In this document: positions 9,359 to 14,348 of the stretch, in pieces
Position numbering within the stretch: the stretch's first letter is position 1
Layout: each line of letters opens with the position of its first letter
From: Hyphomonas sp.
Lineage (GTDB): Bacteria > Pseudomonadota > Alphaproteobacteria > Caulobacterales > Hyphomonadaceae
Length of the DNA stretch: 32,000 nucleotides
Assembly: GCF_016125515.1 (NCBI RefSeq)
Contig: NZ_WGLO01000015.1
Coordinates: 4,381 to 36,380 of the forward strand
Direction of reading: 5' to 3'
Translations under genes and position numbers: made by a program
The notes under the pieces: generated by a model
What the model saw: the letters and a program-made list of their open reading frames with translations, nothing else
The model's database searches: none
What the model was told of the DNA's origin: nothing

Positions 9359-10274
9359 TCAGTTGAGCAATGATTCGAGGCTTTCGCACTGCGCGGCGTG
9401 CTTTTCCGGGTTCGTGTCTCGCAGTTTCAGGATGTTTTGCAGCTTCCACTGGACGGCGGGCAGGTCCGCCGCGGATGGTAAATCGATGGCGTCGAAGTCC
9501 GGTTCGCCATTGACCAGTGTTCGCAGAAATCGTGCCGCATTGCCGTTCAGGCGCGACTGTACATCTGCAATGAGTGTGACCCGCACTTGCTCCAGTTCGG
9601 CGAGGCTGACCGCATCGACAGTCATGCCGGAGAACTCAGCCTCGAAGACGTTTGATAAGGGTGCGAGGTTCGGGTTCAGCAATTCATGCGGAGGTCTGCT
9701 GGAGCTCGCGACACAGACGAGGAAGGCCCGGAAGAGATCATCCGTAATGCCCTCATGCTCTTAGAGCAGCTTCACATCGAACAGGTCGCGCGGGTGCTGA
9801 CGGTCAAGCGCGGCATGGAGCTTGCCGGCATAGAGATCCTCGAACGCGACCAATCTTGTCTCCGCGAACCCGAATTCGTCCTCGACCGCAGGTGAGACGC
9901 GTTTGGTCTCGGGCTCGAACACAACGCCGCGTGTCACAGGGGAGGTTTCGACCTTCACGGATGCAGCGCCGCGCCGAAACAGGACGCGGGTGGCGCCGCC
10001 GCCACCGCCCGGGATCCGGGTCGCGGTCACGCCTCGCACTTTCGAGCCTGCCGCAGCGATACGGGTCATGGCGGCGTCGATGTCCGTAAGGGATTGCGCG
10101 CGTTCCCTGACCGGCAGGAAGGTCAGATCGACATCGACCGACAGGCGCGGAAGATCACGATAGAGCAGGTTGATCGCCGTGCCGCCTTTCAGGGCAGAAG
10201 TCTTCTTCTGCCGCCACGGCAGGCTGGATATCCACCAGCAGCCGGACCTGATCCACATATCGCTCACGTGCCAT
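9359..10274 (-). pseudogene. abiEii: AbiEii/AbiGii-family nucleotidyltransferase toxin (type IV TA), inactivated
   Basis: The family N-terminus MARERYVDQVRLLVDIQPAVAAEEDF starts at the ATG at 10274. It is one frame off from ALKGGTAINLLYRDLPRLSVDVDLTFLP; an extra base near 10195-10197 explains the shift. An in-frame TAA at 9761-9763 then splits the gene (...RDLFDVKLL*EHEGITDDLFRAFLV...). I verified codon by codon that the 168-aa and 107-aa track ORFs share one frame. Confidence 0.8.
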
Positions 10275-11061
10275 GGCGAGCCTCACTTTGCGGCATCAGC
10301 TCAGGCGGCACGGAGACCTTGTAGTGCGGATGAAACTGTCCTTTGTCAAAGAGGGCGCGGGGCCCCGAGCCGAGGTCGAACCGCTCCGGCGAGAGATGTC
10401 GCCGCCAGGCATGAGCATGCTTGTCGGCAAAAACGAAGAAGAGCCGCTTGACCTTGATGCTGGTGCAGGACGCCAGCAGCTTTTCCAGTCGGCGGGGGCG
10501 CGCGGACACGAGGCCTTCAAAGGCCGTATCGACGATATGAGCGCTCTCATGCTTCGGCAGCTCATCCAGCAATTCAAGGATGGCGCGTTCCGGCGTTGAA
10601 CACTTCAGCAGGCCAACGGGGGAGTCGACCTCCGTCGTTTCCTCATGGGCCTTCATGTCGAACAGTTTGGCGCTGTGCAGCCTGTAGCGGCCCGCCTCAT
10701 CCAGCCGCTTGAGCCAGGTCGGATGGGCTTCGCCATAAAGGTGGACGTCCTGATCGCCGCGCATCGGCAGATAATGGGCGAACCCTTGCAGCTCCAGTGC
10801 GGTCCGTCCGCCAACCACTGATGAATAGTTCATGATGTGCTGCAGCGAGCGCACCACGCGTTGCCAGTCTGCGCCGCCAGCGACAACCTGCGGCCGTCGA
10901 TAGAGGCCGCGCACCACCGGTTCGAGCCAGCCGCTGTCTATGTATTTGTGGGCGAGCATGCGCGTGATGCCATGACGCTCCAGCGTTGACGTATCGACCA
11001 GCTGACCTGGCAGGACGGTCTCCAGCAGCCATTTTAGCTTTGTCTCATTTTGTCGCCTCAT
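10264..11061 (-). CDS. abiEi: AbiEi-family antitoxin/transcriptional regulator (type IV TA)
   Basis: 265 aa from the ATG at 11061 (MRRQNETKLKWLLETVLPGQLVDTSTLERHGITRMLAHKYIDSGWLEPVVRGLYRRP). This is a winged-helix N-terminus typical of AbiEi. Its 3' end overlaps the ancestral abiEii start (ATGGCACGTGA). The 98-codon 5' extension in the track runs through AT-rich promoter DNA and was trimmed. Confidence 0.75.
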   Translation of the reverse strand: MRRQNETKLKWLLETVLPGQLVDTSTLERHGITRMLAHKYIDSGWLEPVVRGLYRRPQVVAGGADWQRVVRSLQHIMNYSSVVGGRTALELQGFAHYLPMRGDQDVHLYGEAHPTWLKRLDEAGRYRLHSAKLFDMKAHEETTEVDSPVGLLKCSTPERAILELLDELPKHESAHIVDTAFEGLVSARPRRLEKLLASCTSIKVKRLFFVFADKHAHAWRRHLSPERFDLGSGPRALFDKGQFHPHYKVSVPPELMPQSEARHGT

Positions 11062-11747
11062 AGGATACAAAATAGCCAATTTTCGAAATTTAGCAAGTGG
11101 AGAGTTTTGAAAATACGCAGACTGGTATACCCAAAGGGTACTAAAACCACCAAACTCGAAACGCGCCGGGTTAAGCGAACACGCCTGTACACACGCCAGC
11201 ACCCAGTGATCACCGTGAGCCGTACAAGGCTCTAAATTCTCGCAAGACGTCGCAAGAGCGTCGCCCCGCAAGGTCAACGGGAACCGATCTAAGTGTTTGT
11301 TGAAGAACACTTTTTTAGCGAAAACTTGCACAGCCTCGGTGGTTCTCGCAAACATGCGAAAGCCGAGCTCCCAAAGACCAAATCGCCGATCTTGCCGGTC
11401 ACGTGCCTGGCGCAGGGGTCACCGGTATCGACGGGCTCGATCACCGCGAACTCTGCCTCGACCGGCAGGTCCTTTCCGCCATCCTCGCCTTCCTCGGATA
11501 CACCTAGCCGGATCTTTTTTTGCCTGATCCTTACCGGAATCTGGCACGCAAACCCCGCTTCCGGCAGGTTTTGGCCCCAATTCCCCGAAATGTGCCGCCC
11601 CGGAACAGGTTTCCAAACGGGCCCCTAACGGGGGTGGCCAAACTCATCTTCCAAGGCAAGGCCGGGCTTAAACCGCCTCGTGTACGGTCCGCTCATACCC
11701 CTGCAGAAGCGGGGTGAAACGCTAAGGACCGTGAAGTGGTTTTTGAA

Positions 11748-12020
11748 ATGAACATGCAGAATGCACGCCCGATGAGTGTCAAAGGCCCGGACGGCCAGAA
11801 GCTCACCCTCGCCGACCTGCCGTCGCCCGGCATCTCCCGCTGGGTCACCCGCCGCAAGGCGGAAGTTGTGGCCGCCGTCCAGGGTGGTCTGTTGACCCGC
11901 GAAAGCGCCTGTGAACGCTACAATCTGACCGAAGAAGAGTTCGAAGGCTGGGAGCGGCTCTACGCCCGTCACGGCGCCAAAGGCCTGCGCACGACCCGCT
12001 TGCAGCAATACCGCCGTTAA
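11748..12020 (+). CDS. sciP: CtrA inhibitor SciP (DUF1153 HTH protein)
   Basis: The text ...LTLADLPSPGISRWVTRRKAEVVAAVQGGLLTRESACERYNLTEEEFEGWERLYARHGAKGLRTTRLQQYRR closely follows Caulobacter SciP. The start is ambiguous: GTG 11736, ATG 11748 or ATG 11754. Confidence 0.8.
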   Translation: MNMQNARPMSVKGPDGQKLTLADLPSPGISRWVTRRKAEVVAAVQGGLLTRESACERYNLTEEEFEGWERLYARHGAKGLRTTRLQQYRR

Positions 12021-12036
12021 CGCGGCGTTTGCCTTG

Positions 12037-12051
12037 TTAAACCTGCCTTAA
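12037..12051 (+). promoter_or_regulatory. CtrA box (TTAA-N7-TTAA) upstream of the fliF-like operon
   Basis: TTAAacctgccTTAA matches the consensus half-sites and spacing exactly. It lies 60 bp upstream of the fliF-like ATG. A GANTC (GAATC) site sits at 12074-12078. Confidence 0.6.
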
Positions 12052-12110
12052 GGCGGGCCTTCTAGCCTTCCGGGAATCTGCCGGCCAAACGGCCGGCCCC
12101 GGAGAGCACG

Positions 12111-12773
12111 ATGGCGCTTGGCAAGACTGCAGACACGGCTCAGGCGGGGCTGCTGCGCCCGCTGGCGCTGCTGGCCTGCGCGCTGGCGCTCGGCCTGCTG
12201 GCCTGGCGCGGCGCCGCCCTGCTGACCGGCCCGGGCGCACCGGTTGCGGCGACCCCCGCCGAAGCTGCGCTCGCCGACATCCTTACCCCGATCGCCGGCC
12301 CCGGCCTTGCGCGCATCAGCGTCGCCTACAATGCCGAAGGTGGCCGCACATTGCTCGTCCTGCTGGACGACGCGGCCGCGCCCCGCATTCCGGAGCTCCA
12401 GCGCATCGCCCCCATCGCCGCCGGCCTGATCCCGGAGCGCGGCGACAAGCTGGTCATCGAAACCGTTGCCTTTGCCGGCGGCCTGCCGGGCCGTCCAGAC
12501 ATGGCGGCCTGGATCGAACTTGCCGCACTGGCCGGCCTCGGCCTGATTGGCGGGGCACTCGCCGTGCTGGCGCGCACCCCGGCGCCGGTCGCCGCCGCGC
12601 CGTCCCAGATCCTTCCGGCCCAGCAGCCAGTGGAGCGTCCGCGTGAGGCGCTCCGGGCCCAGAGACCCGTCGCGGTGTCGACGGACGCCGCCGCGGACCT
12701 CGCGCGCCGCGATCCCGCCCGTGCGGCGGCCGTTGTGCGCGGCTGGATGACGGCCAAGGATGAAACCGCATGA
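12111..12773 (+). CDS. fliF: Miniature FliF-like M-ring protein (TM, single RBM-like domain, TM, FliG-binding tail)
   Basis: 220 aa. TM1 is about aa 15-37 and TM2 about aa 133-155. The periplasmic segment (EAALADILTPIAGPGLARISVAYNAEGGRTLLVLLDD...LQRIAPIAAGLIPERGDKLVIETVAF) resembles the YscJ/FliF ring-building motif (E-L-x-I-x-GV-x-ARVHL...). The C-terminus DLARRDPARAAAVVRGWM resembles the FliF tail that binds FliG-N. An ATGA overlap links it to fliG. Confidence 0.65.
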   Translation: MALGKTADTAQAGLLRPLALLACALALGLLAWRGAALLTGPGAPVAATPAEAALADILTPIAGPGLARISVAYNAEGGRTLLVLLDDAAAPRIPELQRIAPIAAGLIPERGDKLVIETVAFAGGLPGRPDMAAWIELAALAGLGLIGGALAVLARTPAPVAAAPSQILPAQQPVERPREALRAQRPVAVSTDAAADLARRDPARAAAVVRGWMTAKDETA

Positions 12774-13684
12774 GCGCGCTCACCCGCCCCCAGGACACTC
12801 TTGCCCCGGGCCTCGCCCGGTCGGCCCGGTTGATGCGCGCGCTGGGTCCGGACGCGGCCGCGATCTGGGCTGAGCTTGATCCGCAGGAAGCTGCCAGCCT
12901 CAGCGCGGCGATGGACCGTCTCGGCGACGACCCTGCCGGTGAGGCCGAAGCGCTGCGCCGCTTCACCGAAGCCCAGCGCAGCCCCGCCGCCTCGGGCGTG
13001 TGGGCAGACCTTTCAGCGCTCGACACAGCCTTGCTGTCCGGTCTCTTGCGCAACGAGCGCGCGCAGATCGTGGCGCTGGTCCTCTCCCGTCTTACCGGTG
13101 AAGCCGCCGCCCGGTTGCTGCGCGCCTTGCCGCCCACGCTGTCGATCGATGCCATGCAGCGCCTTCTGCATATCGGCGAGGTGCACCCCGCCGCGATGGC
13201 GAGCCTCGAGCAGCACCTGAAGGGCCGCGTCAAGGCGCTGGCCAGGGACGGTGCGCAGGTGGGCGCAGAACGTATCGCCAGGATCTTCGACCGGCTCGAT
13301 CCGCGTGCGGGCACGCTGTTCCTCAGCGCGCTCGAAAAGGCGGAGCCGGGCACGGGCGAGAAAGTCCGCTCCCTGATGTTCACCTTCGACGACCTCGCGA
13401 CGCTGGACGCTGGCGGCATGCAGACATTGCTGGCGGCCGCAGACCGGGCCGTCCTGATCACTGCGCTCAAGGGCGCAAAGGACACAACCGCGGCGGCCTT
13501 CTTCGCCAACGTTACCCAACGTTCCGGAGACCTCCTGCGCGAAGAGATCGCTGCGCTGGGCCCGCTGCGCCGCAGCGATATCGAAGCGGCCCGCACCGAA
13601 CTGGTGGAGCTTGCGCGCCTGCTGATCGGCCGCGGCGAGATCCGAGCGGGCAAGGCTAATGATCTTGACGAGCTGGTCGAATGA
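12770..13684 (+). CDS. fliG: Flagellar motor switch protein FliG
   Basis: 304 aa. Recognisable elements: N-domain (SARLMRALGPDAAAIWAELDPQEAASLSAAM), middle domain (LLRNERAQIVALVLSRLTGEAAARLLRALP), MFTFDDL, LITALKGA, and the charged torque helix (TQRSGDLLREEIAALGPLRRSDIEAAR). Confidence 0.85.
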   Translation: MSALTRPQDTLAPGLARSARLMRALGPDAAAIWAELDPQEAASLSAAMDRLGDDPAGEAEALRRFTEAQRSPAASGVWADLSALDTALLSGLLRNERAQIVALVLSRLTGEAAARLLRALPPTLSIDAMQRLLHIGEVHPAAMASLEQHLKGRVKALARDGAQVGAERIARIFDRLDPRAGTLFLSALEKAEPGTGEKVRSLMFTFDDLATLDAGGMQTLLAAADRAVLITALKGAKDTTAAAFFANVTQRSGDLLREEIAALGPLRRSDIEAARTELVELARLLIGRGEIRAGKANDLDELVE

Positions 13685-14085
13685 CGGCGCGCGCTGTGAA
13701 GTCCGTCACGCCGTTCGACTTCCGGGCCGATTTCGGGCCGCAGCCGGAAGAGGTAGCGGCCGAGGATCCGGCCCGCGTCAGTTTCACGGGCGAGGAGATT
13801 GCCGGCCTGATCGCGCAGGTGCGCGCTGAGACCCTCGCGGAGGTCGCCCGCGTCAAGGCCGAGACCGAGAGCGAACGCCTCGCCGCCGTGACCGCCGAGC
13901 TTGCCCAGGCGCTTGAAGAGATCGCTCAGGTGATGCGCCTGATTGAGTCCAGCCAGTTTCACGCTACAACCGAGGCGCGCCTGCGCAGCCTCATCGATGG
14001 CGCGGCTGCGCGGATCGTTCACGGGCAGGGCGACCTGTTTGCGGCGACCGGGCTGTCGCCCAAGCCGAAGGAAGACCGGACATGA
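13681..14085 (+). CDS. FlbE/FliH-like flagellar assembly protein (short coiled-coil)
   Basis: 134 aa with an Ala/Glu-rich coiled coil. It occupies the flbE position between fliG and fliN, as in the Caulobacter fliF operon. ATGA overlaps occur at both ends. The assignment rests on position and composition only. Confidence 0.5.
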   Translation: MTARAVKSVTPFDFRADFGPQPEEVAAEDPARVSFTGEEIAGLIAQVRAETLAEVARVKAETESERLAAVTAELAQALEEIAQVMRLIESSQFHATTEARLRSLIDGAAARIVHGQGDLFAATGLSPKPKEDRT

Positions 14086-14348
14086 CCGAACCAGGCAATC
14101 CCGCGCTCCACCGCATGTTGATGGACGTTCCGGTGCGCGTTGAAGTCGTGCTCGGCGAAGTGCGCCTGACGATGGAAGAACTGTCGGCGCTGACGCCCGG
14201 CGAAGTGCTCACGCTTGAGAAACAGACCGGTGAGCCGGTCGACATCTACGTGTCCGGCCGCCTGATCGCGCGCGGCAAGCTGGTGGTCGCCGATGGCGAA
14301 CTGGGCGTAACGCTGACCGAGATCGTGGACGCGCGCACGGTCAATTGA
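14082..14348 (+). CDS. fliN: Flagellar motor switch protein FliN (SpoA domain only)
   Basis: 88 aa. The text VPVRVEVVLGEVRLTMEELSALTPGEVLTLEKQTGEPVDIYVSGRLIARGKLVVADGELGVTLTEI is the canonical FliN/SpoA C-terminal domain. Confidence 0.85.
   Translation: MTEPGNPALHRMLMDVPVRVEVVLGEVRLTMEELSALTPGEVLTLEKQTGEPVDIYVSGRLIARGKLVVADGELGVTLTEIVDARTVN

Follow-up and report, generated by a model that had tools for sequence, protein, structure and literature searches.

A collar-less, 220-residue FliF paralogue encoded between sciP and fliG in Hyphomonas

A 32,000-nucleotide stretch of DNA from Hyphomonas sp. (contig NZ_WGLO01000015.1; hereafter the window, to which all coordinates of its features refer) encodes, directly 5′ of a fliG gene, a protein of only 220 residues, here called mini-FliF, which is a paralogue of FliF, the protein that forms the MS-ring of flagella, and not an orthodox FliF. 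As judged from its sequence and predicted fold, it consists of a first transmembrane helix (TM1), the core of the third ring-building motif (RBM3), a second transmembrane helix (TM2) and a C-terminal tail of the FliG-binding type, with RBM1, RBM2 and the β-collar lost. The usual view of FliF is that of a core protein of ~550 residues, universal and present in a single copy; FliG docks to a 34-fold symmetry that is set by the RBM3 and collar of FliF. Mini-FliF is best read as an additional, so far uncharacterised rotor component rather than the product of a broken gene; in the explanation that we somewhat favour, this FliF paralogue is anchored in the membrane, docks FliG and acts in polar rotor assembly.

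The kinship with FliF is visible because family profiles were used; single-sequence scans were blank. The mini-FliF sequence alone gave no direct match in Pfam or NCBIfam scans, so that no curated FliF threshold was reached. Of the two Pfam models that an earlier note on this DNA had put forward for checking the kinship, PF01514 (YscJ_FliF) matched neither the protein nor any of 30 relatives at E values up to 10, and PF08345 matched 11 of the 30 relatives, weakly (best E = 0.024). When a profile of 30 homologues was run against 1.84 billion representative sequences, it yielded 245 proteins, of which more than 100 are 200–235 residues long, and the same search brought up nine full-length FliFs (506–572 residues, E = 5e-7 to 1e-5), aligned via their last 150–170 residues. 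A 107-member mini-FliF profile compared with the PDB matched Salmonella FliF (E = 2e-6), pairing positions 80–213 with FliF 396–559, which comprise the last part of RBM3 (FliF 396–438, corresponding to the β2-α2-β3 part of mini-FliF), followed by TM2 and the C-terminal tail; another, weaker piece paired positions 41–68 with FliF 240–267. Alignment by hhalign to 12 full-length FliFs gave a probability of 98.2% (E = 4.8e-14), with residues 80–218 opposite FliF 359–537. Compared alone, the α1-β1 piece was closer to the start of RBM3 (RBM3a, FliF 242–266; E = 7.6e-5) than to its equivalent in RBM2 (E = 0.16). The profile alignments reach FliF 242–266 and 359–537 only.

Structure prediction gave a matching picture of the domain order. 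Hydropathy analysis placed two hydrophobic segments in mini-FliF (19-residue window centres at 20–30 and 140–147), and the AlphaFold2 (AF2) model comprises a helix at 5–39, a helix at 131–153, a disordered linker and two tail helices (191–200 and 202–215). Between the two membrane segments lies an α-β-β-α-β unit, predicted to be periplasmic (residues 49–119; predicted local distance difference test (pLDDT) score 88–96), whose elements are α1 (49–62), β1 (67–73), β2 (79–86), α2 (87–104) and β3 (113–119). A Foldseek search with this model recovered FliF S-ring/RBM3 chains (8z4g, 8z4d and 6sd3) with a probability of 1.0 and an E value of only ~1e-2, because the transmembrane helices spoil the global fit; the top rank was a KH domain, and PrgK domain 2 (4oyc) was found too (E = 0.07). 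The turn between β1 and β2 measures five residues in mini-FliF, whereas FliF has a β-collar of ~110 residues there, and the link between the equivalents of R68 and L84 spans 11–16 residues in all 107 family members, none of which has a collar. No other cytoplasmic block of the family is as conserved as the tail, in which P202, R210 and W212 are nearly invariant; the tail motif, DPxxAAxxxRxWM, aligns with the Salmonella FliF C-terminus (...MSDNDPRVVALVIRQWM) and with the consensus of full-length FliFs (...DPExAARVVRGWL), and binding to FliG is predicted on this basis.

Mini-FliF thus shares with FliF (PF01514 plus PF08345; Salmonella structures 6SD1–6SD5, 7CG7 and 8Z4D) the predicted topology of a periplasmic ring-building domain between two transmembrane helices, the α-β-β-α-β core of RBM3, the conserved F-A/S that follows β3, the two-helix tail with its DPxxxAxx(I/V)RxW(M/L) motif, and the position of the gene directly 5′ of fliG and coupled to it. 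It differs from FliF (500–580 residues) in its length, in the absence of RBM1, RBM2 and the collar, in falling below the curated FliF thresholds, in coexisting (by synteny) with a full-length FliF in Hyphomonas neptunium, and in the place of its gene between sciP and, in relatives, ctrA, outside the flagellar island. RBM1 and RBM2 of FliF house the rod and the export gate, and the loss of RBM2 together with the collar argues against an MS-ring of mini-FliF that houses the export gate and the rod. Several statements of the earlier note can be judged against these results. Its 220-residue open reading frame with two transmembrane segments agrees in coordinates, length and hydropathy, and the sciP gene and CtrA box 5′ of it and the ATGA coupling to fliG that it had listed are all present. 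The tail, which it had likened to the FliG-N-binding helix, does align with FliF C-termini. Where it had seen a single YscJ/FliF-like ring-building motif of ~90 residues, there is indeed one such motif, of RBM3 and not of PF01514 type according to the profiles; where it had held RBM3/S-ring and β-collar to be entirely absent, the collar is missing, and the RBM3 core is precisely the domain that was kept.

The short form is widespread and uniform rather than peculiar to the window. The 116 close homologues of mini-FliF (39–100% identity) are 207–238 residues long, with the exception of three shorter entries (137–192 residues), and the wider family comprises more than 100 clusters at 50% identity, of 202–239 residues and with identities down to 21–23%. 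A module of five genes (sciP, mini-fliF, fliG, a gene for a small protein here called X, and fliN) was found in all of ~40 loci examined, with mini-FliF at 212–226 residues. The five genes stand in the same order in 31 genome loci, obtained by a scan that reached Hyphomonas-level genomes only and including cultured H. polymorpha PS728 and H. johnsonii MHS-2; five distant members (23–30% identity) also lie in such a module. No full-length fliF occupies the position of mini-fliF in any relative examined, and tblastn with seven full-length FliFs (the nine from the profile search minus P0380 and P0382) revealed no second fliF within 10 kb in loci L001–L033. No relative was found in a plasmid collection. 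Pairwise ratios of nonsynonymous to synonymous substitution rates (dN/dS) for mini-fliF, which are upper estimates since dS is near saturation in this set, range from 0.19 to 0.59, the closest pairs giving ~0.19–0.2; the median of 0.385 is comparable to the value for fliG (0.295), and the other neighbours have 0.364 (X), 0.147 (fliN) and 0.074 (sciP). The most conserved positions are structural (G63, R68, L84, D86, F121, A122 and E136) or lie in the tail (P202, A206, R210 and W212). By these measures, mini-FliF is under purifying selection and not a lesion; a recent deletion is excluded because lengths, architecture and synteny are conserved, dN/dS is below 1 and no full-length gene is present at the site. 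Members of the family are annotated as ‘hypothetical protein’ in NCBI records and in some cases as ‘FliF/YscJ’ in JGI, and neither a Pfam or NCBIfam model nor a literature description of the family was found. Among the loci collected, four (L004, L005, L007 and L013) come from metagenome-assembled genome records titled Acidobacteria bacterium or Candidatus Sulfopaludibacter; they hold a Hyphomonas-type sciP-mini-fliF-fliG-X-fliN-phhA locus with 58–72% identity, and these contigs are probably mis-binned or mislabelled.

In the window, mini-fliF is embedded in an operon (Table 1). Its Shine–Dalgarno sequence, GGAGAG, lies 5 nucleotides (nt) 5′ of the start codon, its G+C content at third codon positions (GC3) is 0.83, matching that of adjacent genes, and its stop codon shares a 4-nt ATGA (12770–12773) with the start of fliG. 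Overlaps of this kind occur at three junctions, mini-fliF/fliG, fliG/X and X/fliN. The gene 5′ of the operon is confidently sciP (132.9 bits against the NF051866 equivalog cutoff of 100; PF06627, 2.9e-38), and sciP stands directly 5′ of the mini-fliF module in all loci examined. A phenylalanine hydroxylase gene follows fliN in the window. An antisense open reading frame of 522 residues (12454–14022, minus strand), which opposes three conserved genes (mini-fliF, fliG and X), was rejected as a high-GC artefact with an atypical G+C content at second codon positions (0.70).

Table 1 Features of the mini-fliF locus in the window
Feature	Coordinates	Strand	Description
sciP (CtrA inhibitor, DUF1153)	11736..12020	+	NF051866 equivalog, PF06627
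CtrA-type box TTAAACCTGCCTTAA (TTAA-N7-TTAA, perfect)	12037..12051	+	Putative; 74 nt 5′ of mini-fliF start
Leader stem-loop, nested hairpin	12065..12107	+	3′ arm covers Shine–Dalgarno GGAGAG (12101–12106)
mini-fliF	12111..12773	+	220 residues, ATG start; FliF paralogue without RBM1, RBM2 and β-collar
TM1, ~residues 17–39	12159..12227	+	Hydropathy peak, AF2 helix 5–39; R33 nearly invariant
Periplasmic RBM3 core, residues 48–120	12252..12470	+	AF2, Foldseek, profile alignments
TM2, ~residues 131–153	12501..12569	+	Hydropathy peak, AF2 helix; aligns with FliF TM2; preceded by conserved F121-A122 and E136
C-terminal two-helix tail, residues 191–215	12681..12755	+	Motif A..LARRDPARAAAVVRGWM; predicted FliG-N docking
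fliG paralogue	12770..13684	+	304 residues; Pfam FliG_N, FliG_M and FliG_C all match
Gene for protein X	13681..14085	+	134 residues, coiled-coil; FlbE/FliH position; ATGA-coupled on both sides
fliN paralogue	14082..14348	+	88 residues, SpoA domain only; PF01052, TIGR02480

This gene order (sciP, a FliF-type gene, fliG, a small gene, fliN) and the putative CtrA boxes resemble the class II operon of Caulobacter crescentus, sciP / fliF-fliG-flbE-fliN (CC_0903 and CC_0905–0908). The Caulobacter fliF is full-length and single, whereas the FliF-type gene is reduced here and a full-length copy resides in the H. neptunium island. Because the gene order mirrors that of Caulobacter, it suggests that the reduced mini-fliF descends from an ancestral class II operon.

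A box of the form TTAA-N7-TTAA or TTAA-N7-TTTA is present in the spacer between sciP and mini-fliF of every locus inspected. Downstream of it, the leader of mini-fliF can be folded into a nested hairpin; RNAalifold, applied to close relatives, gave −31.7 kcal/mol with 17 pairs, two of them with compensatory changes, and in 16 of 18 leaders, which belong to different clades and diverge in arm sequence, the minimum free energy fold pairs the Shine–Dalgarno sequence. The leader had no Rfam match. The hairpin may gate translation, for example by telling transcripts that read through from sciP apart from those that start at an internal CtrA promoter. Just 5′ of the CtrA box, the sciP stop codon lies within a terminator-like hairpin (CGCCGTTAACGCGGCG, 12012–12027) that is followed by a T-rich tail; terminator-like sites were no more frequent in the region than expected by chance, and a scan for σ70 promoters there yielded nothing.

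The FliG paralogue matched FliG chains in the PDB at E = 1e-28, and its AF2 model has the full FliG fold, with Salmonella and Aquifex full-length FliG found at E = 1e-13; it falls below the TIGR00207 cutoff (129.5 against 226.7). The charged residues of the torque helix (K, R, EE, R) are conserved, and when aligned to Vibrio, Aquifex and Thermotoga FliG, the protein keeps the stator-contact stretches ALKGA, QRSG, LREE and PLRRS as well as MFTFDDL; in more general form, two of these motifs read QR(S/A)G and PxRRS. The FliM-binding EHPQ motif (FliG residues ~93–100) is kept by many FliGs of the family and reads EHPQ or EHAQ in H. johnsonii-type members. Protein X, present in all loci, combines a PFxFRxDF motif in its N-terminal part with a coiled coil in the middle and DGQGDLF in the C-terminal part, with F12, D17, F18 and G115-Q116..L119-F120 (within DGQGDLF) invariant; it gave no significant match in Pfam, NCBIfam or the PDB. 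The FliN paralogue is supported by PF01052 (3.3e-23) and TIGR02480 (89.5 bits against a cutoff of 84.05).

Evidence for a second FliF comes from H. neptunium, for which supplementary tables list a motility island with fliL (HNE_0241), fliF (HNE_0242), a hypothetical gene, fliN (HNE_0244), fliP and HNE_0246 (PMC7200025). HNE_0242 (232121–233720) encodes ~533 residues, is assigned to COG1766 and has Caulobacter CC_0905 as its best match, and HNE_0246 is a ‘motor switch’ protein of COG1536 with ~363 residues (PMC7200025). Apart from this island, sciP (HNE_1390) is followed by a hypothetical gene (HNE_1391), a putative FliG (HNE_1392) and another hypothetical gene (HNE_1393) (PMC7200025); by synteny, HNE_1391 would be the mini-FliF of H. 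neptunium. HNE_1391–1393 are expressed, and they rise together with flgD, fliK and flagellin in a divJ mutant (PMC7200025). Mini-FliF is therefore probably not the only FliF of the organism studied here. Two full-length FliF representatives considered as island genes of Hyphomonas were ruled out, as they lie in flgB-flgC-fliE-fliF-fliG-fliH-fliI clusters of other bacteria. A further link to the flagellum lies 3′ of the operon in relatives: in the complete Hyphomonas genome CP051230.1 and in a TARA contig, fliN is followed by genes for an FlhF-like signal recognition particle-type GTPase, a MinD/FlhG-like ATPase and ctrA (NF045991, ~410 bits against a cutoff of 350), and ctrA is two genes away in a third contig (positions of these flhF-like, flhG-like and ctrA genes: L038, 12371–15134; L041, 12426–15093; L042, 7570–8271). 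Since ctrA follows there, the whole rotor operon lies between sciP and ctrA in these relatives.

The proposed mode of action builds on two properties of FliF, the oligomerisation of RBM3 and the co-folding of its tail with the N-domain of FliG (FliG-N). The FliF tail co-folds with FliG-N in a 1:1 ratio, a subject that the structural studies of Lynch (2017) and Xue (2018) are reported to treat. Collar-bearing RBM3 of FliF assembles into rings by itself and is the driver of MS-ring oligomerisation, a step at which bacteria with polar flagella depend on additional factors, FlhF among them (PMC8786727). Mini-FliF would insert into the inner membrane as a hairpin with both termini in the cytoplasm, as FliF does, and its periplasmic RBM3 core of ~90 residues would let copies associate laterally. 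Beyond TM2 and a disordered Pro/Ala-rich linker, the two-helix tail would co-fold with the N-domain of the FliG paralogue, the product of the overlapping and translationally coupled next gene; docked FliG would recruit the FliN paralogue, probably joined by protein X. The outcome would be a membrane-tethered FliG/FliN rotor sub-assembly under CtrA/SciP control, timed to the biogenesis of the polar flagellum and working beside, not instead of, the full-length FliF encoded elsewhere.

Several observations weigh against this explanation. Binding of the tail to FliG and any oligomer of mini-FliF are things that we infer, as are self-association of the RBM3 core and use in a flagellar motor; the full-length FliF of this genome is likewise deduced from synteny and one related species. 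The ring-forming RBM3 constructs had the β-collar (PMC8786727), so that a collar-less core may not form rings alone. The operon contains no fliM, and in the clade of the window the FliM-binding EHPQ reads ERAQ. The H. neptunium island carries a COG1536 (FliG-like) protein and a FliN of its own; the flagellum may accordingly not need the module, which would favour a non-flagellar role. Finally, chromatin immunoprecipitation tables for H. neptunium assign a CtrA peak to sciP and none to HNE_1391–1393 (PMC7200025).

A non-flagellar role could take the form of an independent assembly, a secretion-incompetent ring or patch of mini-FliF, FliG, protein X and FliN that never enters a flagellar motor and serves, for example, as a polar landmark or cell-cycle sensor, its genes being placed between sciP and ctrA. 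The separate FliF, FliN and COG1536 protein of the H. neptunium motility island fit such an assembly, as do the isolation of the module among housekeeping genes and its adjoining of cell-cycle regulators, the absence from mini-FliF of every part that houses the rod or the export gate, the lack of fliM in the operon and the degenerated EHPQ of the window's clade. However, the FliG of the module keeps its stator-contact charges and, in many members, EHPQ, which would be hard to explain without MotA and FliM, flhF-like and flhG-like genes stand 3′ of the operon in relatives, and the divJ mutant shows co-regulation of the operon and flagellar genes; on balance, we regard this role as unlikely. The earlier note had named a scaffold for a non-flagellar FliG/FliN assembly as one possibility, of which the scaffold lives on in our favoured explanation and the non-flagellar part does not, as the evidence ties the assembly to the flagellum. 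It is possible, though rather unlikely, that Hyphomonas and its relatives build a second membrane complex of FliF/FliG/FliN type from a minimal, collar-less RBM3 ring, either as a gate-less, rotor-only ring or as an extra ring in the MS/C-ring. If so, the position of its genes between sciP and ctrA in relatives would tie rotor assembly or pole identity directly to the CtrA circuit.

Alternatively, mini-FliF could join the full-length FliF in a heteromeric MS-ring, or surround it as a concentric ring held by RBM3–RBM3 contacts, so that one motor would offer FliG docking sites of a second type. The domain that was kept is the one whose lateral contacts set the stoichiometry of the MS-ring (PMC8786727), and H. 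neptunium has two FliF-like and two FliG-like proteins; but a collar-less subunit would open gaps in the β-collar barrel, and mini-FliF evolves faster than FliG and FliN, and this arrangement appears quite improbable to us. A radically simplified MS-ring with mini-FliF as the sole M-ring protein, another possibility named in the earlier note, is very improbable: although mini-fliF holds the fliF slot of the sciP-fliF-fliG-flbE-fliN order of Caulobacter, H. neptunium has the ~533-residue fliF HNE_0242 besides its sciP-linked cluster, it is not known how FliPQR and the rod could be housed without RBM2 and collar, and the motors of H. neptunium, imaged by electron cryotomography, are cited as ordinary flagellar motors. 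Virtually no weight is left for a recent in-frame deletion or a decaying, functionless remnant. The gene is short and no curated model matches it, yet length and architecture are kept down to 23% identity and across more than 100 clusters, synteny and ATGA coupling are strict, dN/dS is 0.2–0.4, and conservation extends to the tail motif and to structural residues, with no relative that has a full-length gene at the site. The idea of an in-frame deletion in a non-motile lineage, the third that the earlier note had offered, is refuted by the 116 homologues, the clusters, the ~40 syntenic loci and dN/dS; its own judgement that the gene does not look like a simple decay product is borne out by conserved lengths, synteny and a dN/dS below 1, and the survey of orthologue lengths that it had suggested turned up the short form throughout.

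Small or single-RBM membrane proteins are known from other systems, from which mini-FliF can be told apart. With SctJ/PrgK/EscJ it shares the RBM fold (as seen by Foldseek for PrgK domain 2) and the character of a small ring-building membrane protein; SctJ, in contrast, has a lipoprotein N-terminus, two RBMs and no FliG-binding tail, and mini-FliF differs from SctJ/YscJ in lacking a PF01514 match, in its flagellar-type neighbours and in a profile likeness to RBM3, TM2 and tail of FliF. SpoIIIAG and SpoIIIAH are likewise single-RBM membrane proteins, and the RBM of SpoIIIAG has a β-insertion analogous to the FliF collar. Unlike mini-FliF, however, they have one N-terminal transmembrane helix, no FliG-docking tail and no flagellar context, and no sequence match to them was found. 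Also similar in architecture is P0370 (275 residues; L045, 8001–8828), another kind of short FliF, which has PF08345 as its sole match and lies among ABC-transporter and GGDEF genes: like mini-FliF it comprises a transmembrane helix, RBM3, a second transmembrane helix and a FliF-type tail without RBM1 and RBM2, whereas it keeps an insert of collar length and has no fliG, fliN or sciP neighbours.

Mini-FliF offers a natural minimal construct for the function of RBM3 without a collar and for the loading of FliG onto a membrane ring, and it raises the question of why a polar flagellate keeps two sets of FliF, FliG and FliN. The module keeps a fixed place beside sciP and, in relatives, beside ctrA, which also makes it a candidate for connecting rotor assembly with the cell-cycle circuit of alphaproteobacteria.

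Upstream of the locus, an AbiEi/AbiEii type IV toxin–antitoxin pair (9359–11355, minus strand) lies between an HU gene and sciP. GC3 of AbiEi is lower (0.67), and the AbiEii open reading frame, which may be split, spans profile positions 16–168 of 238. The matching slot of L001 (7093–9330) holds a gene for a 745-residue protein with TIR and WD40 domains, and the interval between HU and sciP looks like a variable slot for defence genes.

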